A DNA stretch of 64,000 nucleotides from Elusimicrobiota bacterium (GTDB lineage: Bacteria > Elusimicrobiota > Elusimicrobia > UBA1565 > UBA9628). Where the stretch lies: the NCBI GenBank assembly GCA_016218545.1, contig JACRDQ010000020.1:34455-98454 (forward strand), written 5' to 3'. Position numbers and translations under genes: made by a program. The notes under the pieces were generated by a model. The model was not told the DNA's origin. It was given only the letters and a program-made list of their open reading frames with translations, and did not search any database. Shown here piece after piece: positions 2,270 through 55,101 of this stretch (its first letter is position 1; each line of letters opens with the position of its first letter).

Positions 2270-4240
2270 CCACACCGGGGTCTGGGCCAGGTACACGGCC
2301 TTGAACCTCCGCGTCTCGAAGAAGCAGGGCCCCTGGCTCTGCCGCTCCTTGAGGTCGAGCACGATCCTCCTGTCGTCCAGCAGGACGTTCAGGCGGAATG
2401 CGCGGCCAGGACACCCGCGGAAGGACGCGGCTGACACCGACTCGAGCTCGAGCTTGGCCGCGACCTTCAGCTCTTTGCGGACCTGCGCCACTGCGCGCTG
2501 TTCAGCGGAGGACGGCTTGGAGAGGACCGGAGGATTGTCCTCCCCTGCCAAGGGCTCGGGAGCGCCGGCATGCGCTCTTTTGACCCGCGCCACAGCCTCG
2601 GCCAGGAGGCCCGTCCTCGACCACGTCTCCTGAGCGCGCTCGAAGAGCTCCAGGAGCTCCAGAGCCGCCTCGAGGATGCTCCACGGAGGCCTGGTCGTGC
2701 GGCCTGAGCACGCTTCATCCCGGAACACGCTCGACAAGAGGTCGTATTCCGGGTCTCCGCGGAACAGGGTTCGCGCCTCGGGACACTCCATGGCGACATA
2801 GAGCCGGACGAGGATGCGGAAGAAGTCCGCGACCTTGCGGTCCTTGAACCGCCAGGGCATGGAGCTCCACAGCACCTGGAGACCGAAGCATGGATAGAAG
2901 AGGAGCCCCGGGTCCTCGTACTCGGGGAGGATGACGCCGCCCTCGTGCTCCGCCAGAGCGGCCAGGGCGGTCCCTTTACGGAGCATCAGGCTCGTGCAGA
3001 GCCACAGCCCGTTGCCGTCGAACCCGCGGCGGCCGGCCTCCCGGAGGTTCACGCGGAGTTCCGCGAGCGTGGTCCACGGGGTGAACAGGAGCATCAGCCA
3101 GTTCCTGCCGTCCCCCCGCGCCTGGAAAGCCTTCGGCCAGCGCCGGCTCCAGCCCGCCATGAGCCTGAAGACCTCGTCCACCTGGGCGATGGAGATGTCC
3201 TTGTTGTAGAGCCTCATGACCGCTGGAGAGAAGTTCTCGATGCCCATGACCTCGAAGCTCATCCGGTGCCCGGCTGCCGCGGCCTTGGGCAGGACCGCCG
3301 AAATGCGGCTCCGGGATGAGAGGACGTCGTCGATGCGCGGGCAGAAGACGAACCGGGCCGGCCTCAGGCCGATGCGCAGCACCATGTCGAAGAAGAGGTC
3401 GATGCGATGGAAGAGGCCGAGGTCGTAGACGATGTAGGCGCCCCGGCTCCTGGATTGCCGAGGCCCTCCCCGTGACGCGGCCTTGAGCTGGCGCTCAGCC
3501 AAGTCCAGGGAGCCGGCCTGGTGCCCGGCCAAGGGCCCGGTCTCGATGGAGCCCCCGCAGAAGCTGCACCCGGGAGGAAGGTCCGGCGCGCCCACCACTC
3601 CCCTGAAGCAGGGGTTCTTGGCGGGAGAGGGCCTGCCCCTGCAGCTGCGGCCTCCCAGGATGATCACCGGAGGGCCGTCCTCGGCCTTGGCCATGGCGCC
3701 CACGGGCGCGGCGCGGTAGTCGGGCTCCACCGCGTCGAGGACGGACCTGCCCTCCCCTGGATGCGGACCCGCTCCCAGCCACCTGGAGAACCAGCCGGGC
3801 TCATGGGTGAGTTCCCGCCCCTCGCCCTTGCCCCTGACCAGCCTGAGGTAGGGGTCGAGCTCCGGGTCGTGCTCGCCCCACCGGAGAGCCTCCATGTCGA
3901 ACTCGCAGGGAAGGACCATGAAGCGCCGCGCTCCAGAGGCGCGGACCGCGGACCGGACCCCCGGGACGAGGAGCTCGTTGGAGACCACGTGCGTGGGTCG
4001 GAAGGCCTTCAGCCTCCTCTTGAGGACCTCGAGGTCCCCCCTCTCCAGGCCGGCCCGGAGCACGCGGCCGAGCGGCCGCTCCCACGCGATGCCGGTCCTG
4101 GCCTTGAAGAAGAGCCACTGGGCCGGCACGCCGCAGTCCCGCGCCACCCCCTTGAAGAACGGATAGAACATGGAGGTCTCGCGCCGGTCATCCATGCTCG
4201 AGAGGAACTCCAACAGCAGCAAGCGGGGGTTCGGACTCAC
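2192..4240 (-). CDS. Large uncharacterized protein with C-x10-C-x13-C-x2-C-GG motif, paralogue of ORF 2-2269.
   Basis: 682-aa ORF. Motif RSCRGRPSPAKNPCFRGVVGAPDLPPGCSFCGG and an LLFTPWT motif are shared with gene 1. GTG start at 4240 lies 5 nt after the upstream stop, with an alternative ATG at 4195. Same-strand operon with the genes at 4246-7965. Confidence 0.55.
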   Translation of the reverse strand: MSPNPRLLLLEFLSSMDDRRETSMFYPFFKGVARDCGVPAQWLFFKARTGIAWERPLGRVLRAGLERGDLEVLKRRLKAFRPTHVVSNELLVPGVRSAVRASGARRFMVLPCEFDMEALRWGEHDPELDPYLRLVRGKGEGRELTHEPGWFSRWLGAGPHPGEGRSVLDAVEPDYRAAPVGAMAKAEDGPPVIILGGRSCRGRPSPAKNPCFRGVVGAPDLPPGCSFCGGSIETGPLAGHQAGSLDLAERQLKAASRGGPRQSRSRGAYIVYDLGLFHRIDLFFDMVLRIGLRPARFVFCPRIDDVLSSRSRISAVLPKAAAAGHRMSFEVMGIENFSPAVMRLYNKDISIAQVDEVFRLMAGWSRRWPKAFQARGDGRNWLMLLFTPWTTLAELRVNLREAGRRGFDGNGLWLCTSLMLRKGTALAALAEHEGGVILPEYEDPGLLFYPCFGLQVLWSSMPWRFKDRKVADFFRILVRLYVAMECPEARTLFRGDPEYDLLSSVFRDEACSGRTTRPPWSILEAALELLELFERAQETWSRTGLLAEAVARVKRAHAGAPEPLAGEDNPPVLSKPSSAEQRAVAQVRKELKVAAKLELESVSAASFRGCPGRAFRLNVLLDDRRIVLDLKERQSQGPCFFETRRFKAVYLAQTPVWSEAEKKLLTGLVSMLEARLADAGRP

Positions 4241-23767: not shown

Positions 23768-24578
23768 CCTTGCGGAGCAGGTCGTCGGGCAGGGTCCCCA
23801 GTCCCCGGACCAGCCTGGCCGCGTCCGCCTCCCCTTTCCTCTTGCTCGCGTGGACGCGGGGGTCCTCCCCCCAGATCCCGGCAGCGGACTTGCCTCGGTC
23901 CGTCACGAGCTCCTCCGCCTTGATCCGGTCCAGGGACACGAGCTCGGGCCTCAGGACCATCATGAGGGAGGTCTCGTACGCCGCCGCATGGTCCGACCAG
24001 GGTTCCCCGGGAAGGAACTCGTAGGTCGCGACACCGTAGGTCAGGCCTTCCACGGTCACGGCCTTGGCCGCCTTCTCCAGGGGAGCCAGTTGCTCCGGCA
24101 CGTCGTGCCCCGCCACGCCCACGATGACCTTGAAGCCCAAGGACGCCAGCCACCGGAAGACGCCGGTGAAGAGCTCCTCCACGGCCCCCTCCGGAGCCCC
24201 GTGATACGTGCCGGTCAGGCTGGCCCCTCCCCTCTGCCAATAGGTGACCGGCAGGACGACTCCGCCGTACTTCCGGGCCGCGGCTTCGCACAGGAGGTGC
24301 GCCTTGAGGCCGTCGACCCCGTAGGGAAGGTGGCGGCCGTGCCATTCCAGGGAGCCGTAGGGCACGTAGGCGACCGGCCTCTCCTTGATGGCCGCCGCAA
24401 GCTCATGCGGCAGGAGCTCCTCGTAGCGGACCTTGCGCTCTCCCCCCTCGGCTCCGGGACAGAGGACCGCCAGCCACAGTCCCAGGATCAAGCTCGTCAT
24501 GGCCATGCCTCCCAGCGGCTCGGGCGCCGCGGCCTTATGATACCAAAGGAGGCCCCGATGCGAAGGGCGCCCAGGCAT
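23757..24578 (-). CDS. Creatininase (creatinine amidohydrolase) family protein.
   Basis: YGSLEWHGRHLPYGVD, AGHD and DHAAAYETS motifs match the creatininase fold metal ligands. Start is uncertain (M1, M25 or M27). The N-terminal segment is hydrophobic. Confidence 0.7.
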   Translation of the reverse strand: MPGRPSHRGLLWYHKAAAPEPLGGMAMTSLILGLWLAVLCPGAEGGERKVRYEELLPHELAAAIKERPVAYVPYGSLEWHGRHLPYGVDGLKAHLLCEAAARKYGGVVLPVTYWQRGGASLTGTYHGAPEGAVEELFTGVFRWLASLGFKVIVGVAGHDVPEQLAPLEKAAKAVTVEGLTYGVATYEFLPGEPWSDHAAAYETSLMMVLRPELVSLDRIKAEELVTDRGKSAAGIWGEDPRVHASKRKGEADAARLVRGLGTLPDDLLRKVRE

Positions 24579-28225: not shown

Positions 28226-28270
28226 GAAATGCAACATGGCTGGTGTCAGACACCAGCCATGTTGCATTTC
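28226..28270. repeat. 45-bp perfect palindrome, copy 1 of a dispersed palindromic repeat family.
   Basis: GAAATGCAACATGGCTGGTGTC-A-GACACCAGCCATGTTGCATTTC. Intergenic, between two minus-strand genes. Confidence 0.6.
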
Positions 28271-35980: not shown

Positions 35981-38900
35981 CTAGGGGAGCCAGAAGTCCC
36001 GCGGATAGAGCCGCACGAGGCGCTCGCCTTCGCCGTTGGCCTTGAGGAAGGCCTCGTAGTCGTCGAGAAGCGGGGCCGGCCCGATGGCGAAAGCCGAGGC
36101 CCCGGGAGCGTCTGCGACCTTCGGCCCCAGCCCGACCAGCACGCGGCCGAGCACCGGCGCCAGGCGGCGGCGCACCTCTGCGAGGGTGCCGGGACGACGG
36201 GCCTTGGCCACGAGGCCGGACTTGAAGGCCCGCACGGTCTCGGAGGAGACCCCGTCGGCGAGGTTGGCGGCCATGGCGTAGCCGCGCGTGGCGAAGTCCT
36301 CGCTGCCGCGGTAGTCCCCGAAGGAGTTGGCCAGGGCGTACTCTAGGAAGAAGGGCGCGTCCACGGCCGCGGACGAGGCGACTGCGACCGCAAAGCCCAT
36401 GGTGGCGGCCAGGCTCGGGCAGCGCTCGGCGTAGTAGCCGAGCCTCCCGTTCAAGGGGCTTGCTCCCACCCCGTTGCCGTAGGCCAGGCCCTCGGCCCAG
36501 GTCCTCATGAAGAGGCTGTGCCCGGCCGAGCCGGCCAGGACGTTGGCGGCCAGGAAATCCACGAGGTCGGACTCCCCCAGGTCCCGGTAGGACGGCCCCT
36601 TGGCCGACATGACGAGGACCCCGGACTTGGTCCCGTTGTTGACCAGGGCCACGTGCACCGGCCTGCGGCCGTCGCGAGCCGACGGCTCGCGTCCGGCGAG
36701 CCTCGTGAGGACCACGGGTTGCGAAGGCTCCGCCGGGCCCGGGTCTCCTGCCGGGGCCAGGCGCTGCGCCGCGGCTTTGAGCCTGCGGAGGGCCTCGTCC
36801 ATGGCCGCGTCCCCGCCGGTCAGGCTGACACGGACGCGGCCTTTTCTCAGCACGAGCGCCCGGAGCTCCACGAGCTTGGCGATGGCCGCCCCGGAGCCCA
36901 CGCCCAGGTCCGCGGAGAGGGTCCGGGCCAGGCCGCCTAAGTCCTCGCGCCAGGTCTCCTCAGGCAGGGACGCGAGGTCCCACCTGAGGCCCTCGGCCAT
37001 CTCCGGGGGCAGCCCCCCGATGACGGCCAGAGCCTCCTTGCGGCCCTTGGCCGAGGCCGTTGCCGCGACCTCGGCCAGGACGGAGCGCAGACGCCCGAGC
37101 TCCCCGGGAGCCGGGTCTTCGAGCATCCAGCGCAGGCGGTCGAGGTGGCGGAGCTTGGTGAAGGGGCTGCGGATGCTCATCCACGCGGGCTGGTCCTGAT
37201 AGAGGTAGGCCATGGCCGGCTCGCGCACCCAGTACTCCTCCCGCTGCTGGGTCATGGTGCGCAGGGCCTGGACGCGCTCGCGCGTCATGTCCAGGAGCCG
37301 GTCCCGCGACCCGGACCCGAGCCCGCCGCGGAAGAGGCAGGACTCCATCCACTCCACGGCCTTGGCGACCTCGGCCCGGCTGGAGGAGGCCGCGGTCAGG
37401 GAGAGTTCGAGCCTCCCCGTGGCCGGGTTGGCCGCCACGTCGCTGGAGAGCTCGTAGATCTCCCGGCGGTAGCGCTCGATGGCGGCGCTGTAGTCCAAAG
37501 ACTCGCCCCCCGGCGTGGTGACGCCCGTGCCCGTGAGCGTGTCCGCGAGCAGGGGAAGATAGAGGTGGTACTCGGCCGGCACCCGCGAGAGGTCGAAGAA
37601 GAGGCCCATCTCCGTGAACGGCGAGTCGCCGACGCGGCTCAAGACCGCGGCTCCGATCCCCGGGAGCTCCCTCTGCCTGACCGCGAGCTCCGAATCGAGC
37701 GTGAGCGGCGGGTCCTGGACGAAGGAGGCCTTCTCCACCTTCTTGTCCCTCTCCTCGAGCTCCAGGGCCGCGAGGTCGCTGACCCTCTTCACGGCGGCCA
37801 GGGCGGCCTGGAGGTCGCGGCCTCCGGAGGAGGCCAGGGCCGCGGCCTCGAGAGCCTTGACGCGTCCGGCCTTCTCGCTCTTCTGCCTCTCCAGGAGTTC
37901 GTGGTCGGGCTTCAAGGAAGCGGCATAAGGCCGCGCCAGGAGGCCGGCCTTGGAGGCGGCTTCTGCCCAGACATTCTCTCCGGCGGCGATGCGGGCCGAG
38001 AGGCGCTCCACGGCCTGGGTCTGCGGCACGGACTTGCGGAAGCTCCGCGAGGAGGCGTTGAGCCGCTCGAGGTACTTGTGCCACGCCACGCCCCCGGAGC
38101 GCATGCCGAAGCGCGGAGGATTGTCCATGAACTTGAGGAGCTGCCTGCGCCGGGCGCTGATGAGGGACGCGGCCTTGGCCGCCACGGAGGCCAGCTCCGG
38201 GCTGCCCGGCTTCAAGCCTGCCAGCCAGGCCACGCGGTCATGCACGGCGCGGGCCAGGAGCGCGAGCCCCTCCCGTTCGACCCGGTCCGCAGGGAGGCCC
38301 GAGAAGCCCACGACCGGCAGGTTGGAGGGCGGGTCGTCGAGGTAGGCGCCCACGGAGGCGACCCCGAAATCGGCCTTCCTGGTCCGCCGGTCCACGGTGT
38401 CCTTGTGCAGGTAGGAGGTCTCCCCCCCCGCGAGCAGGTCCAAGAGCACGCCCAGGGCCAGGGAGTCCTCGGCGGACAACGACGGCAGGGGCCGCCAGGC
38501 CAGGCGCACGTCCTGCGGGGCCTCGGCGTCGGCCGAGGGATAACGGCCGATGCCCATGCTCCCCTCCTCCGCGGGCTGGAACGGGGGCAGGACCGCCGGC
38601 CCTCCTCCTCCGGCCCCCGTCTTGGAGAGGATGGCGCCAAAGCGCATGAGGAACGAGAATGGGTCCTCGTCCGCGGGCAGGGCGATCACCGCGTTCATGC
38701 CCGGACCGAGGCGGTAGTGCCGTGCGTGGAAGGCGCGCGCCTCTGCCGCGTTCACGGTCCGCATGGCGTCCGGCGCGCCCGCGAAATTGCGGCCCAGCGG
38801 GTGCCCGGGGCCGAACGCCAGGCGGCTGAGCTCGAACCAGCCGGCCAGGTCGGTCTTCTCCATGCCCGAGACCATCTCGTTGTAGACCGTCCCCTTCTCC

Positions 38901-39481
38901 TCGATGGAGAGCTTCCCCCCGGCCCCGGAGGCCTGGACCTCGGGGTTGTAGATCTCGCGCCTGACCTCCTCGTCCGTGAAATCCGGGTGCAGGAGCGTGT
39001 CGAGGCAGGCCTCGAGGAGCCGGTAGAAATCCTCCATCCCGGCCGCGGTGTTGAGCATGTAGCCCGTCAGGTCCGCGTAGGTCCCGGCCGTGTACTCGCC
39101 AAGGCCCATGCTGACCAGCATGTTGAAGCGCTTGCCCTTGGCGCCCTTGCCGAGCACGAGGTGCTCGAGGGCGTGCGGGAGGCCCTTGTCGTCCTCAGCG
39201 AGGGTCTTGAAGGTGATGGAGACCTGGGGGACCGAGGCGAAGAAGAGCAGGTCCGTCTCGAGCCCCGTGGGCCGGTGCAGGAAGCGTCCGCCCATGGCCT
39301 TGCCGAGATGGTTGACGTAGAGGCTGACGCTCGTGAAATCACCGACCCGCCGGCCCTCAGCCAGGCCCTCCAGGGCTCGAGCTCCCTTGGGAGCGGTCCT
39401 GGTCCGGACCGAAGCGGCCCACGCCGGGAGCACGGCGAACGCGCCCAAGACGACCGCGATGAGGAGGAAGAGGGGTTTCAT
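35981..39481 (-). CDS. Large secreted M16-family zinc metallopeptidase (inverzincin, HxxEH).
   Basis: Signal peptide. HALEHLVLGKG inverted zinc motif. 1166 aa with duplicated M16 halves. Confidence 0.8.
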   Translation of the reverse strand: MKPLFLLIAVVLGAFAVLPAWAASVRTRTAPKGARALEGLAEGRRVGDFTSVSLYVNHLGKAMGGRFLHRPTGLETDLLFFASVPQVSITFKTLAEDDKGLPHALEHLVLGKGAKGKRFNMLVSMGLGEYTAGTYADLTGYMLNTAAGMEDFYRLLEACLDTLLHPDFTDEEVRREIYNPEVQASGAGGKLSIEEKGTVYNEMVSGMEKTDLAGWFELSRLAFGPGHPLGRNFAGAPDAMRTVNAAEARAFHARHYRLGPGMNAVIALPADEDPFSFLMRFGAILSKTGAGGGGPAVLPPFQPAEEGSMGIGRYPSADAEAPQDVRLAWRPLPSLSAEDSLALGVLLDLLAGGETSYLHKDTVDRRTRKADFGVASVGAYLDDPPSNLPVVGFSGLPADRVEREGLALLARAVHDRVAWLAGLKPGSPELASVAAKAASLISARRRQLLKFMDNPPRFGMRSGGVAWHKYLERLNASSRSFRKSVPQTQAVERLSARIAAGENVWAEAASKAGLLARPYAASLKPDHELLERQKSEKAGRVKALEAAALASSGGRDLQAALAAVKRVSDLAALELEERDKKVEKASFVQDPPLTLDSELAVRQRELPGIGAAVLSRVGDSPFTEMGLFFDLSRVPAEYHLYLPLLADTLTGTGVTTPGGESLDYSAAIERYRREIYELSSDVAANPATGRLELSLTAASSSRAEVAKAVEWMESCLFRGGLGSGSRDRLLDMTRERVQALRTMTQQREEYWVREPAMAYLYQDQPAWMSIRSPFTKLRHLDRLRWMLEDPAPGELGRLRSVLAEVAATASAKGRKEALAVIGGLPPEMAEGLRWDLASLPEETWREDLGGLARTLSADLGVGSGAAIAKLVELRALVLRKGRVRVSLTGGDAAMDEALRRLKAAAQRLAPAGDPGPAEPSQPVVLTRLAGREPSARDGRRPVHVALVNNGTKSGVLVMSAKGPSYRDLGESDLVDFLAANVLAGSAGHSLFMRTWAEGLAYGNGVGASPLNGRLGYYAERCPSLAATMGFAVAVASSAAVDAPFFLEYALANSFGDYRGSEDFATRGYAMAANLADGVSSETVRAFKSGLVAKARRPGTLAEVRRRLAPVLGRVLVGLGPKVADAPGASAFAIGPAPLLDDYEAFLKANGEGERLVRLYPRDFWLP

Positions 39482-40491: not shown

Positions 40492-41103
40492 TCAGCCGAG
40501 CTTGAGGCCCACGAGGATGAACTGCACGCCGAGGGCGGCCAGCAGGATCCCCATGAGCCTCTCCATGATGTTCATGAAGGTGGGGCTCAGGCGCTTGGCG
40601 CCCGCGGCCGAGACGTAGAGGATGGCGTAGCTCAACGCCATGACCACGGCCAGGCACGCGAAGAAGACGGCCCCGCGCAGGTGCGTACCTGCCTTCTGGT
40701 GGAGCACCATCGCGGTCGTGATGGCGCCTGGTCCGGAGAGCATCGGGATGCCCAGGGGGGTCACCGCCACGTTGTCCTTGGCCTCTCCTTCGGCCTTCTC
40801 CTCGACCGTCTCCTTGAGCGGGCTGCGCTGGGCGCGCAGCATGTCCAGGGCGGCCAGAAGCAGGATGAGCCCTCCCGCGATCTGGAGCGCGGGCAGGGTG
40901 ATGCCGAAGACCTTGAAAATGATGTTGCCCAGGCCCGCGAACGCGGCCATCACGAACCCGGCCACGAGGCAGGCGGTCCGGGCCATGCGCTGGCGCTCGG
41001 CCGCGGAGTTCTGCGGGGTCATGGCGAGGAACGCGGGGATCGCGCCCAGGGGGTCGACCATGGCGAAGAGAGCGCCGAACGTCAGGACCGCGTATTCCAG
41101 CAT
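40492..41103 (-). CDS. MarC family (UPF0056) integral membrane protein.
   Basis: Six-TM 203-aa protein with the MarC-type N-terminus (FGALFAMVDPLGAIPAFLAMT). Confidence 0.85.
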   Translation of the reverse strand: MLEYAVLTFGALFAMVDPLGAIPAFLAMTPQNSAAERQRMARTACLVAGFVMAAFAGLGNIIFKVFGITLPALQIAGGLILLLAALDMLRAQRSPLKETVEEKAEGEAKDNVAVTPLGIPMLSGPGAITTAMVLHQKAGTHLRGAVFFACLAVVMALSYAILYVSAAGAKRLSPTFMNIMERLMGILLAALGVQFILVGLKLG

Positions 41104-41128
41104 GCGGCCTTATTATACCAACACCAAC

Positions 41129-41198
41129 ACGGTGCCTGGCATTGTATTAATTGTATTTTTCTCCAGAAAAATACAATTAATACAATGCCAGGCACCGT
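41129..41198. promoter_or_regulatory. 70-bp perfect AT-rich palindrome in the divergent MarC/MFS promoter region, a candidate operator.
   Basis: ACGGTGCCTGGCATTGTATTAATTGTATTTTTCT-CC-AGAAAAATACAATTAATACAATGCCAGGCACCGT. The arms are exact reverse complements. Confidence 0.6.
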
Positions 41199-41217
41199 TA
41201 TTGTACTATTGACGCGG

Positions 41218-42411
41218 ATGAACGCGAACCCCTACTACGTCCTGGCCGTGCTCTTCCTCGTCAATCTCCTCAACTACATCGACCGCCAGGTTCTCTACGC
41301 CGTGTTCCCCCTCATCAAGCCGGACCTCATGCTCTCCGACACCCAGCTGGGAGCCCTGGCCTCATCCTTCATGGTCGTCTACATGTGCGCGGCGCCCTTC
41401 GCAGGCTGGTTCGGGGACCGCTCGAACAGAAGCCGCTGGCTGGCCGGAGGCGTAGGGATCTGGAGCCTGGCCACGGTCTTCTCCGGGCTGTCCAAGACCT
41501 ACGCCCAGCTCCTGGGAGCGCGCTCCCTGGTCGGCATCGGCGAGGCCTGCTACGGAAGCATCTCCCCCTCCTTCATCGCCGAGCGCTTCAAGCTCGACAC
41601 CCGCGCCCGGGTCCTGGGCTTCTTCTCCATGGCCATCCCGGTGGGCAGCGCCCTGGGGTACGTGCTCGGAGGGCAGCTCGGCGAGCGCTACGGCTGGCGC
41701 ACCGCGTTCTTCATGGTAGGAGTCCCGGGCCTGGCCGCGGCCTTCCTCTGCTCTTTGCTCAAGGACCCCAGGAGCGACGCTGCCGGCCGCAAGCCCGCGC
41801 CGCCGGGCTGGTCCGCCTACGCGGGCCTGCTCAAGAACCGCATCTTCGTGGCCGACACCCTGGCCGGGGCGGCCATGACCTTCGCCGTGGGGGGCCTGGC
41901 GGCGTGGATGCCCTCCTACTTCGTGCGCACCTGGAACGTGTCCGTGGGCCAGGCCGGCCTCTGGTTCGGGGGCGTCACCGTGGCCGCAGGCGCGCTCGGG
42001 AGCCTGACCGGCGGCTGGGTCGGCGACTGGGCGCTCCGCTACACGAAGAAGTCCTATTTCCTCGTCACGGGCGTGGGCTTTTTGGCCTGCATCCCCTTCG
42101 GCGCCGCGACCCTCTGGGCCCCGGACTGCCGCACCGCGCTGCTCTTCCTCTTCTGCGCCGAGTTCCTCATCTTCATGAACAACGGCCCCTTGAACGCGCT
42201 CCTGGTGGACTGCACGCCCGTGGCCATCCGCTCCATGGCCTTCGCCGTGAACATCTTCTTCATCCACGCCCTCGGAGACGCGCTCTCGCCGACCCTCATC
42301 GGCTGGGTGTCCGACAAGACCGACCTCAGGACCGGCATCGCCCTGGCCCTGGGAGCGATGTTCCTGGCCTCCCTCTTCTGCCTGTGGGGGACCCGGTATA
42401 TGGAAGACTAG
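41218..42411 (+). CDS. MFS transporter.
   Basis: Twelve predicted TM segments and the MFS motif GWFGDRSNRSRWL (G-x-x-x-D-R-x-G-R-R). The ATG follows the palindromic intergenic region. Confidence 0.8.
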   Translation: MNANPYYVLAVLFLVNLLNYIDRQVLYAVFPLIKPDLMLSDTQLGALASSFMVVYMCAAPFAGWFGDRSNRSRWLAGGVGIWSLATVFSGLSKTYAQLLGARSLVGIGEACYGSISPSFIAERFKLDTRARVLGFFSMAIPVGSALGYVLGGQLGERYGWRTAFFMVGVPGLAAAFLCSLLKDPRSDAAGRKPAPPGWSAYAGLLKNRIFVADTLAGAAMTFAVGGLAAWMPSYFVRTWNVSVGQAGLWFGGVTVAAGALGSLTGGWVGDWALRYTKKSYFLVTGVGFLACIPFGAATLWAPDCRTALLFLFCAEFLIFMNNGPLNALLVDCTPVAIRSMAFAVNIFFIHALGDALSPTLIGWVSDKTDLRTGIALALGAMFLASLFCLWGTRYMED

Positions 42412-49234: not shown

Positions 49235-50083
49235 ATGCCCGCGATCTTCGACTGCCGCTCAGTGGCGGCCCGGTACATGGACTGGACCGCCGGAGCCCTC
49301 AAGCAGCTCTCATCCACCCCGAAGCTGGCCACCCTGCTCGACGTCTCGCGCGGCGACCCCGGGAACCTGCAGTACCGGGACTACATCGACAAGGACAGCC
49401 GTCGGCTCGGCGTACCCTGCATCCATCGCGAGGTCCGCATGCCGGGCGAGGTGCCCACGGCCCTGGCCAGCCTCAACGAGGACCCCGACGTCACCGGCAT
49501 CATGGTGCTCTATCCCGTGGGCGCGCCCATGCGCGACGAGGAGGTCATGGACCTGGTCTCCCCCGCCAAGGACGTGGAGGGCCTGCACTCCACGAACCTC
49601 GGGTACCTCGTCAAGTACCGCCGCCTCCTCGACCAGGCCCGCGGGGTCAAGTGCGTGGTCCCGGCCACGGCCAAGGCCGTGGTGAAGACCCTCCTGAGCT
49701 ACCCCCAGGTCAAGGTCGAGGGAGCCTTCGCCGTGCTCATCAACAACTCCATGCGCGTGGGCAAGCCCCTGGGCCTCATGCTGGAGAACCTCGGGGCCAC
49801 GGTGGTCAAGTGCTACGACAAGACGCCCCGGTCCCTGATCGAGGACTGCGTGCGGCGCGCGGACATCCTGGTCACGGCCGTCCCTGACCCGGGGTTCAGG
49901 ATCGACCCCGGGTGGATCAAACCCGGCTCAGCCATGGTCGACGTCTCCTTCGAGGGCAACGTGGACTTCGAGGCCCTCAGCCGCGGCCCGGCAGGCATCG
50001 TCACCGCCCCGGACAACCGCATCGGCAGGGTCACGCGCGCCATGACCTTCGTGAACCTCGTCTATTGCGCCCAAGCCCGCTGA
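49235..50083 (+). CDS. folD: Bifunctional methylenetetrahydrofolate dehydrogenase/cyclohydrolase.
   Basis: VPATAKAV, NNSMRVGKPL and ADILVTAV motifs, and overall FolD architecture. Confidence 0.85.
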   Translation: MPAIFDCRSVAARYMDWTAGALKQLSSTPKLATLLDVSRGDPGNLQYRDYIDKDSRRLGVPCIHREVRMPGEVPTALASLNEDPDVTGIMVLYPVGAPMRDEEVMDLVSPAKDVEGLHSTNLGYLVKYRRLLDQARGVKCVVPATAKAVVKTLLSYPQVKVEGAFAVLINNSMRVGKPLGLMLENLGATVVKCYDKTPRSLIEDCVRRADILVTAVPDPGFRIDPGWIKPGSAMVDVSFEGNVDFEALSRGPAGIVTAPDNRIGRVTRAMTFVNLVYCAQAR

Positions 50084-50140
50084 CCCTGCCGGAATGCAAC
50101 ACGGCTGGTGTCTGACACCAGTTGTTGCATTCCGGCAGGG
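50084..50140. repeat. 57-bp imperfect palindrome, copy 2 of the family. Lies between the convergent folD and HExxH genes and may act as a bidirectional terminator.
   Basis: CCCTGCCGGAATGCAACACGGCTGGTGTC-T-GACACCAGTTGTTGCATTCCGGCAGGG. Shares GAATGCAACA...CTGGTGTC.GACACCAG...TGTTGCATT with copy 1. Confidence 0.55.
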
Positions 50141-50848
50141 TCAACGGGCGGACATGAAGTCGGTGAGGGCCTTCTCGCCCGCCGGGGTGATGAAGAACAG
50201 GTAGGAGCGCACCGCGAAGCCCTGCGGGTCCATGTCGTGCAAGAGGAGCTGGATCTGGTCCGCGGACTCGAAGGCGGTCCTGCCCTCGGCCTTGAAGCGC
50301 CGGACGAGCTCCTTTCGCTGCGGCTCGGCCATGGTGGCCAATTGGAGGGCGTAGGAGATGAACTCCCCCTGCTCGCGCGGGATGAGCTTGGGCGCGGCGG
50401 CGTAGGCGCGAATGGAGATGTGATGCCCTGCCTCGTGCGCGATGTAGGAGGTCCAGAGCTCGCGGCTCGGAGCCACTCCAAGAGGGGTCGCATCCGGCGG
50501 CGTTTTGGCGAAGACCCGGAAGGTCTTGATGTAGACCTCGTCCGTGTCCGTGTCATAGAAGCCGTGCACGTTGTCGATGATGGGGCTGATCTTCCGGTAG
50601 CTCTCCGGGAAGCGGTCCAACACGTGGATGGTGAGCCGCGCCTTCATCGGGTAGCCGCGCTCGGCCATGAAGCGCTCGGCTCTGGAGAAGCCCTCGCAGG
50701 CCGCGGGCAAGCTCGAGGCCTCGTCTGAGACCACCGTGACCCAGGAGGAGCCGCAGTCGCTGCGGACCCCGGCCGGTTGGGAGGAAGCGGCGCGGGCGGA
50801 CGCCGGCAGGAGCAGGAGAAGAGCCAGCCCGAAAGCCGCGTTCCTCAT
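50141..50848 (-). CDS. Secreted protein with HEAGHH (HExxH) motif, a putative zinc-dependent hydrolase.
   Basis: Signal peptide, single HExxH motif, no other recognisable domain. Confidence 0.45.
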   Translation of the reverse strand: MRNAAFGLALLLLLPASARAASSQPAGVRSDCGSSWVTVVSDEASSLPAACEGFSRAERFMAERGYPMKARLTIHVLDRFPESYRKISPIIDNVHGFYDTDTDEVYIKTFRVFAKTPPDATPLGVAPSRELWTSYIAHEAGHHISIRAYAAAPKLIPREQGEFISYALQLATMAEPQRKELVRRFKAEGRTAFESADQIQLLLHDMDPQGFAVRSYLFFITPAGEKALTDFMSAR

Positions 50849-54979: not shown

Positions 54980-55008
54980 GGTTCGCCTCCTTAAGATTGG
55001 CACCACAC

Positions 55009-55065
55009 ACTGGTGTCAGACGTCAAGACGAGACGGCACCTCAGGGTCCGACGTCAGACACCAGT
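55009..55065. repeat. Inverted repeat ACTGGTGTCAGACGTC...GACGTCAGACACCAGT sharing the CTGGTGTCAGAC core of the family. Lies upstream of ppdK.
   Basis: 16-bp arms with one mismatch and a 25-bp spacer. Located between the hemC-like stop and the ppdK start. Confidence 0.45.
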
Positions 55066-55101
55066 ATATGAATATAGGCGGGGGCTTTCAAGGACCCGGA
55101 C

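Follow-up and report, generated by a model that had tools for sequence, protein, structure and literature searches.

A 70-bp palindrome between divergent MarC and MFS transporter genes of an Elusimicrobiota bacterium: a possible template-switch duplication at a probable gene-loss junction

The window, the whole 64,000-nucleotide stretch of Elusimicrobiota DNA analysed here, raises the question of how a long AT-rich inverted repeat came to lie between two divergently transcribed membrane protein genes and whether it serves them. The MarC and MFS start codons are separated by a spacer of 114 bp (41104-41217), and the following features were located in and around it.

40492-41103, minus strand: MarC/NAAT-family membrane protein gene (Pfam MarC, E=1e-52), start CAT at 41101-41103
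41112-41120, minus strand: MarC promoter, extended -10 TGGTATAAT, 8 nt before the ATG in a leaderless layout, conserved in relatives
41113-41155, minus strand: mirror module in the left arm, TACAAT (41155 to 41150), N7 and ATG (41142 to 41140)
41129-41162, no strand: left arm ACGGTGCCTGGCATTGTATTAATTGTATTTTTCT, found by repeat search, without a counterpart in any relative; proposed as the derived, inverted copy
41141-41186, no strand: AT-rich core of 46 bp, 17% G+C, with four ATTGTA/TACAAT hexamers, two in each arm, 9 bp apart and facing outward
41163-41164, no strand: centre CC, 2 nt, asymmetric, which would be the loop of a hairpin or cruciform
41165-41198, no strand: right arm AGAAAAATACAATTAATACAATGCCAGGCACCGT, found by repeat search; proposed as the source copy
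41172-41187, plus strand: TACAAT-N7-ATG module in the right arm, its ATG (41185) in frame with MFS
41187-41217, plus strand: native MFS-proximal upstream region GCCAGGCACCGTTATTGTACTATTGACGCGG, homologous to GCCAGGCACTCTGCTATCATTGACACGG of the relative L001 by direct comparison
41204-41209, plus strand: -10-like TACTAT, separated by 8 nt from the annotated MFS ATG; the corresponding position in L001 reads TGCTATCAT
41218-42411, plus strand: MFS transporter gene (Pfam MFS_1, E=7e-46), start ATG at 41218

The geometry was determined with a repeat search, which returned two arms of 34 nt each (41129-41162 and 41165-41198) that are complementary at 34 of 34 positions. This agrees with the initial annotation, which had described two exact 34-bp arms forming a 70-bp palindrome over 41129-41198. 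The composition was also close to what had been stated there, an AT content of about 60% in a genome of about 70% GC: the palindrome has 63% A+T (26 G/C of 70), the 64-kb window 69.1% G+C. That it fills most of the divergent 114-bp MarC/MFS spacer was confirmed by the gene starts and the Pfam assignments. The flanks adjoining the arms read ...CCAAC and TATTG..., and a fifth copy of ATTGTA lies at 41200, besides the two ATTGTAT repeats of each arm. When the window was shuffled 30 times with preserved dinucleotides, the longest perfect arm (loop of at most 10 nt) measured 9-13 nt and never exceeded 13 nt, and the earlier statement that such a palindrome is unlikely by chance was borne out. Folded as single-stranded DNA, the 114-bp spacer reached -38.7 kcal/mol, compared with -9.8 +/- 2.4 in shuffles (z = -12). 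The word "perfect" in the initial annotation holds for the arms, which are 100% complementary, but not for the dyad as a whole, which is broken at its centre because CC is not self-complementary.

Several known classes of structured site were compared with the palindrome and rejected. The target of a telomere resolvase (protelomerase) needs a dyad that is perfect through the centre, and the CC centre fails here. Integron attC sites (R''/R' consensus) and dif/lox-like sites were excluded by inspection on their spacing or on the asymmetric centre. For a known structured RNA, Rfam gave only generic miRNA-precursor hairpin models far below the gathering score.

Searches for further copies were run at several scales. 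With up to three mismatches allowed, the half-site ATTGTATTAATTGTA, for which the initial annotation had proposed a search, was found in the 64 kb only at the two arms, and the outer-arm 13-mer gave matches in the window at chance level only. A pattern of both half-sites had no match in 185,579 GTDB species representatives. A 20-mer of the arm had 19 matches, 14 in JGI metagenomes and 5 in IMG/VR, all of them in AT-rich DNA that lacked a dyad and whose flanks were unrelated, and these were therefore regarded as chance. In plasmids and phages blastn gave insignificant fragments only, and blastn-short of the palindrome against the relatives' loci and the rest of the window returned nothing related. 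The MFS and MarC proteins were 100% identical to those of a single NCBI Elusimicrobiota MAG contig of 102 kb (protein accession MBI5623339.1), and the next-best among 5.8 billion proteins had 86% (MFS) and 88% (MarC) identity. No genome closer than 84-88% protein identity was found in the databases searched. The palindrome is real and, in the collections searched, one of a kind.

The MarC-MFS interval was then compared with that of the relatives. In the closest of them, at 84-88% protein identity, MarC and MFS have stayed linked and divergent, with 2.5-3.9 kb of differing genes between them. The MFS upstream region is different in the three closest genomes, and the palindrome is absent from all of them. 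The intervals were composed as follows.

L002: MarC-MFS interval of 3.9 kb, encoding X (234 residues, without a Pfam family), a PPK2 kinase and a protein of 517 residues
L003 and L100: MarC-MFS interval of 2.5 kb, encoding an M3-like peptidase and a protein of 184 residues
L001: X directly upstream of MFS, 47% identical to the X of L002
L103 and L105: MarC-X promoter region of the L002 type kept
L104: X absent, 28 nt between the stop codon of PPK2 and the start of MarC, no palindrome
Window: only the palindrome between MarC and MFS; neither X nor any of the other cargo genes anywhere in the 64 kb

With five gene contents among L001-L003, L100, L103-L105 and the window, the interval is hypervariable. 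The initial annotation had suggested a check of related genomes and had named, as an argument against its reading, an ordinary spacer in related strains that has no effect on expression. MarC and MFS do occur there without the palindrome, but these relatives are only 84-88% identical in protein, so that ordinary spacers in them say little about function. At the L003 locus a different 34-bp near-palindrome, ATCCACCAACATATCTT|AAGATATGCCGGTGGAT (3943-3976, 88% complementary), stands between a TTGACG-N16-TACACT promoter and the orthologous MFS start, 25 nt upstream of the latter; its sequence is unrelated to that of the window palindrome.

The order of events was approached with the DcuC protein, which is 92.4% identical between the window and L002, 82.4% between the window and L001 and 84.2% between L001 and L002. 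The window therefore groups with L002, and L001 stands outside. Since X occurs in both L001 and L002, it is most simply ancestral, and it was probably lost in the lineage of the window. The palindrome would then most likely mark a gene-loss junction, seen as a break in synteny. X has its own TTGACG/TAGACT promoter, and no inverted repeats were found around it in L001 and L002. Its loss in L104 was independent of that in the window, and the L104 junction is consistent with a deletion at a short direct repeat.

To which side of the junction the arms belong was read by eye from the homology boundaries and the arm polarity. On the MarC side, homology to the relatives runs through the promoter (CAT-N8-attatacc) and ends at about 41119. 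The MarC -10 is conserved in the relatives and is therefore outside the new DNA. On the MFS side, homology with L001 starts at GCCAGGCAC (41187) and continues from there; L001 reads TGA-GCCAGGCACTCTGCTATCATTGACACGGATG where the window reads AAT-GCCAGGCACCGTTATTGTACTATTGACGCGGATG. GCCAGGCAC makes up the outer nine bases of the right arm and recurs at the equivalent place upstream of MFS in L001. No relative has a counterpart of the left arm or of the 22 AT-rich nucleotides in the right arm. Because GCCAGGCAC is shared with L001, the outer right arm looks native and the left arm looks like its inverted copy. This polarity, read from nine identical bases in one relative, is the weakest link of the argument for a template switch, and the ancestral presence of the 22-nt AT-rich part of the right arm is assumed.

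From these comparisons we propose, with about an even chance of being right, that the palindrome is a lineage-specific inverted duplication made by a one-step template switch at the gene-loss junction, with incidental effects on the promoters. The ancestor would have had MarC and MFS in divergent orientation with at least one gene (X) between them, and in the lineage of the window the DNA between the two would have gone. During or after this loss the nascent strand would have switched to the opposite strand as its template for 34 nt of the native region upstream of MFS, and it would then have returned to its own template two bases from the end of the copy. The switch points would be from 41128 to 41198 and then back from 41165 to 41163. 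The product of these steps would be an exact reverse-complement left arm beside the source right arm, with a loop of 2 nt, and the DNA between the MarC promoter and the right arm would have been lost in the same event or earlier. The arms would be AT-rich because the copied segment was promoter DNA with TACAAT -10 hexamers. The palindrome itself, its uniqueness, its place at a break in synteny, the partial homology of the outer right arm to a relative and the -10-like composition are observed; how it arose, whether during or after the deletion, and what it may do to expression are inferred.

The perfect arms together with the short loop are the signature of a single copying event. The new sequence is the exact reverse complement of the adjacent sequence over 34 of 34 positions with a 2-nt loop, as a template switch predicts. 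In the outgroup comparison the left arm was absent from all relatives, and only 9 nt of the right arm were recognisable, in L001 alone. Template switching can produce perfect stems of tens of bases in a single event (PMC8794818), and bacterial inverted repeats are homogenised by template switching (PMC5941160). The palindrome resembles template-switch mutations and quasipalindrome correction (Ripley model; Loytynoja and Goldman four-point model; PMC8794818, PMC5941160) in that a reverse-complement copy adjoins its source, with perfect arms and a short loop, and in that a hairpin would be made de novo in one step. It differs from typical events in its 34 nt, at the long end of the reported range, and in its coincidence with the loss of at least 0.8 kb. 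No convincing microhomology was seen at the left junction. Perfect arms would also be expected from purifying selection on a functional symmetric site or from repeated homogenisation of the arms.

A short perfect palindrome where genes have vanished could also be the trace of a mobile element, a possibility raised in the initial annotation. It might consist of terminal inverted repeats brought together, of a minimal MITE, or of the remnant of a nearly precise excision where a cassette with the intervening genes left. The hypervariable interval, with different cargo in every relative, the two long terminal-repeat-like arms joined by 2 bp and the AT-rich composition, foreign-looking in a 69% GC genome, would all fit. 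Tn10 offers a parallel; Foster and colleagues reportedly found in 1981 that its nearly precise excision leaves a palindrome of about 50 bp made of the outer ends of IS10. As at such a remnant, a larger DNA segment has disappeared where the palindrome stands. Unlike there, no target duplications flank it, no IS-related termini are present and one arm is partly native chromosomal sequence. No direct repeat adjoins the arms as a target-site duplication, and no transposase or integrase is encoded within about 8 kb. No other copy turned up in the window, the GTDB representatives, the JGI metagenomes, IMG/VR, plasmids or phages. Gene X of L001 and L002 has no flanking inverted repeats, and the outer 9 nt of the right arm match native L001 sequence. 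With no target-site duplication at the arms, no further copy in these collections and an outer right arm that looks native, the idea of a mobile-element relic is not supported, and we regard it as improbable.

The hexamers in the arms were then compared with the -10 boxes of the whole window, counting the pattern TA[ACT]N[AT]T on both strands of the 64 kb. Only 71 such -10-like hexamers were found. Long ORFs of high GC3 have 23 of them 5-12 nt ahead of their start codons, 10 of the 71 fall in 41111-41205, and the TACAAT boxes of the arms, two to an arm and 9 bp from each other, point outward. The box just before an ATG is often TGnTATAAT or TGnTACAAT, and the two genes at the palindrome read TGGTATAAT-N8-ATG (MarC) and TACTAT-N8-ATG (MFS). 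Since -10 hexamers lie 5-12 nt before many starts, short or absent leaders are a common layout in the window, which suggests that leaderless or very short-leader mRNAs are widespread in this high-GC Elusimicrobiota lineage. Boxes of the forms TATAAT, TACAAT and TATCAT, often extended by TGn, were observed near start codons at, for example, 56441, 49219, 39498, 34461, 58860, 52122 and 43812. An ORF of 1166 residues (35981-39481, minus strand), whose coding signal is strong (GC3 0.93), has a TATAAT-N11-ATG start and no Pfam family at E<=1e-5. A near-identical minus-strand string of promoter and start, TTGGTAT(A/C)ATAAGGCCGC, is common to 41101-41121 and 24526-24546 (17 of 18 positions), and the genes behind it are unrelated. 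In MarC the shared string adjoins the ATG directly; at 24529-24546 the next triplet is GTG (24528 to 24526), a putative start.

Within the right arm, a start at ATG 41185 would give MFS 11 more residues (MPGTVIVLLTR), and a second leaderless MFS start is possible there. The mirror module of the left arm opens an ORF of 9 codons (MPGTVLVLV*) out of frame with MarC, which is probably a by-product of the duplication.

These promoters bear on the proposal that the palindrome is a functional regulatory dyad whose perfection is kept by selection. A dimeric or tetrameric regulator might use it as an operator, or it might co-ordinate the divergent MarC and MFS promoters as a cruciform or as a module of the UP-element type. 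The position would suit this, as the palindrome lies centrally between two core promoters, with two ATTGTAT repeats per arm 9 bp apart and the fifth ATTGTA at 41200, with a very stable hairpin and with A-tracts that would fall around -40 to -60 relative to each promoter. The MFS core promoter, which has no TGn extension like that of L001, could need help from upstream. Against an operator speaks that no second half-site was found in the 64 kb with 3 mismatches allowed, that no DNA-binding regulator family was found by Pfam in the 14 neighbouring genes (about 8 kb) and that no palindrome is shared upstream of 80 orthologous MFS loci, the dyad being absent from every relative. The scan for the sigma-70 consensus found no -35/-10 promoter pair in the palindrome region, which likewise counts against it. 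The arm motif TACAAT is the usual -10 box of the organism, so that the operator-like half-site is ordinary promoter vocabulary; ATTGTA/TACAAT is a generic -10 hexamer here.

Palindromic operators in divergent promoters, such as tetO/TetR and marO/MarR, are symmetric sites placed, as here, between divergent membrane-transport genes. Their half-sites measure about 6-10 bp, the gene of the cognate regulator is nearby and they are conserved across relatives; none of these three features was seen at the window palindrome. To our knowledge, none of the known operators needs perfect symmetry over 34 bp that include a GC-rich outer part. The high-affinity operator of the initial annotation thus found no further half-site in the 64 kb, no regulator gene in about 8 kb and no counterpart among the 80 orthologous loci, and we consider a selected regulatory dyad unlikely. 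Warman and co-workers reportedly described in 2021 bidirectional promoters that arise from the symmetry of the -10 element, with overlapping -10 boxes and start sites about 18 bp apart. The palindrome is like them in its AT-rich -10-like hexamers on both strands between divergent genes. It is unlike them in that about 17-40 bp separate its mirrored boxes, which are inside a 70-bp dyad with perfect arms.

A hairpin left behind by a lost gene, as a terminator or a REP-like element related to the palindromes at gene 3' ends of the window, was weighed as well. A gene probably stood at the site formerly, and long perfect hairpins do occur at gene 3' ends in the window (22-nt arms at 28226-28270, 27-nt arms at 50075-50149) and in relatives, for instance with 28-nt arms in L030. 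REP/BIME-like repeats and bidirectional intrinsic terminators share with the palindrome a long stable intergenic hairpin, and the window holds such hairpins at 28226-28270, 50075-50149 and 55004-55070. Unlike these, which are GC-richer, multi-copy and placed at gene 3' ends, the palindrome occurs once, is AT-rich in its core and has a gene start on either side. Its sequence kinship with the GTCWGAC palindromes of the window is at chance level only. Instead of a GC-rich stem it has a core of 17% G+C, and no proper T-tract follows. In L001 the X stop codon abuts GCCAGGCAC with no hairpin between. Both neighbouring genes start here, so that there is no 3' end, and the terminator scan gave only weak sub-hairpins of 7 pairs. 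Such a leftover is very unlikely.

The palindromes at 28226-28270, 50075-50149 and 55004-55070 form a group of their own. They share the core GGTGTC[A/T]GAC (6 matches, 0.27 expected), the outer motif ATGCAACA/TGTTGCAT is common to two of them (4 matches, 0.28 expected), and at one site the 22-nt arms are perfect. Each of the three follows closely on a gene 3' end or separates convergent genes, and they may be REP-like or terminator-like repeats. Similar GGGGTC[A/T]GACCCC palindromes were seen in L028 and L030, and in L030 their perfect arms reach 28 nt.

The least probable account is that of an artefact of assembly or library preparation, in which a hairpin chimera entered a short-read MAG; we give it hardly any weight. 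The sequence is known from one contig of one MAG, and the records contain no independent assembly of it. MEGAHIT by default uses a maximum k of 141 and a minimum k-mer count of 2. The MAG, as its accession series suggests, may come from the NC_groundwater study, in which 150-nt reads were assembled with MEGAHIT defaults (PMC7906910). In that case, with 150-nt reads and k up to 141, real k-mers observed two or more times would have to bridge the 70-bp element. Unitigs of low coverage can be unsafe (PMC9528984), but MEGAHIT handled palindromes correctly in tests (PMC9528984). The flanks are two different and correct gene starts with conserved promoters, and a simple turn-around would retrace the same path. 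The outer junctions share only ACGG, which is too little for a k-mer join. Taken together, the operator, the mobile-element relic and the assembly artefact are weaker readings than the template switch.

If the palindrome did arise by a template switch, outward-facing -10-like boxes and A-tracts would now lie upstream of both core promoters at about -40 to -60. Cruciform extrusion between the divergent genes, which the initial annotation had considered as well, could also occur. It is physically plausible because the arms are perfect, the centre has 2 nt, the core is AT-rich and the site lies between divergent promoters, where divergent transcription would generate negative supercoiling at the dyad. 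One could go further and suppose that the single copying event yielded a functional AT-cored dyad capable of forming a cruciform, which, once the intervening genes were lost, would respond to supercoiling as a bidirectional promoter module of MarC and MFS or would be a recombination site that drives the gene turnover of the interval. We assign this extension only a small probability.

The initial annotation was right in its observation, and its interpretations are supported in part. The palindrome is best filed as a further instance of a known mutational product, the template-switch inverted duplication, in a promoter region, a singleton known from one MAG that gave no sign of a dedicated function in these analyses. 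It reveals no new system, and it cautions that perfect symmetry in data from a single MAG need not mean function. If the proposed origin is true, it would be a clean natural example from an uncultured phylum with leaderless-type promoters, in which a single copying error at the junction of a deletion turned promoter DNA into a long hairpin with perfect arms. That step would immediately have remodelled the control region shared by two genes, and the locus would illustrate the birth of promoters and structures.
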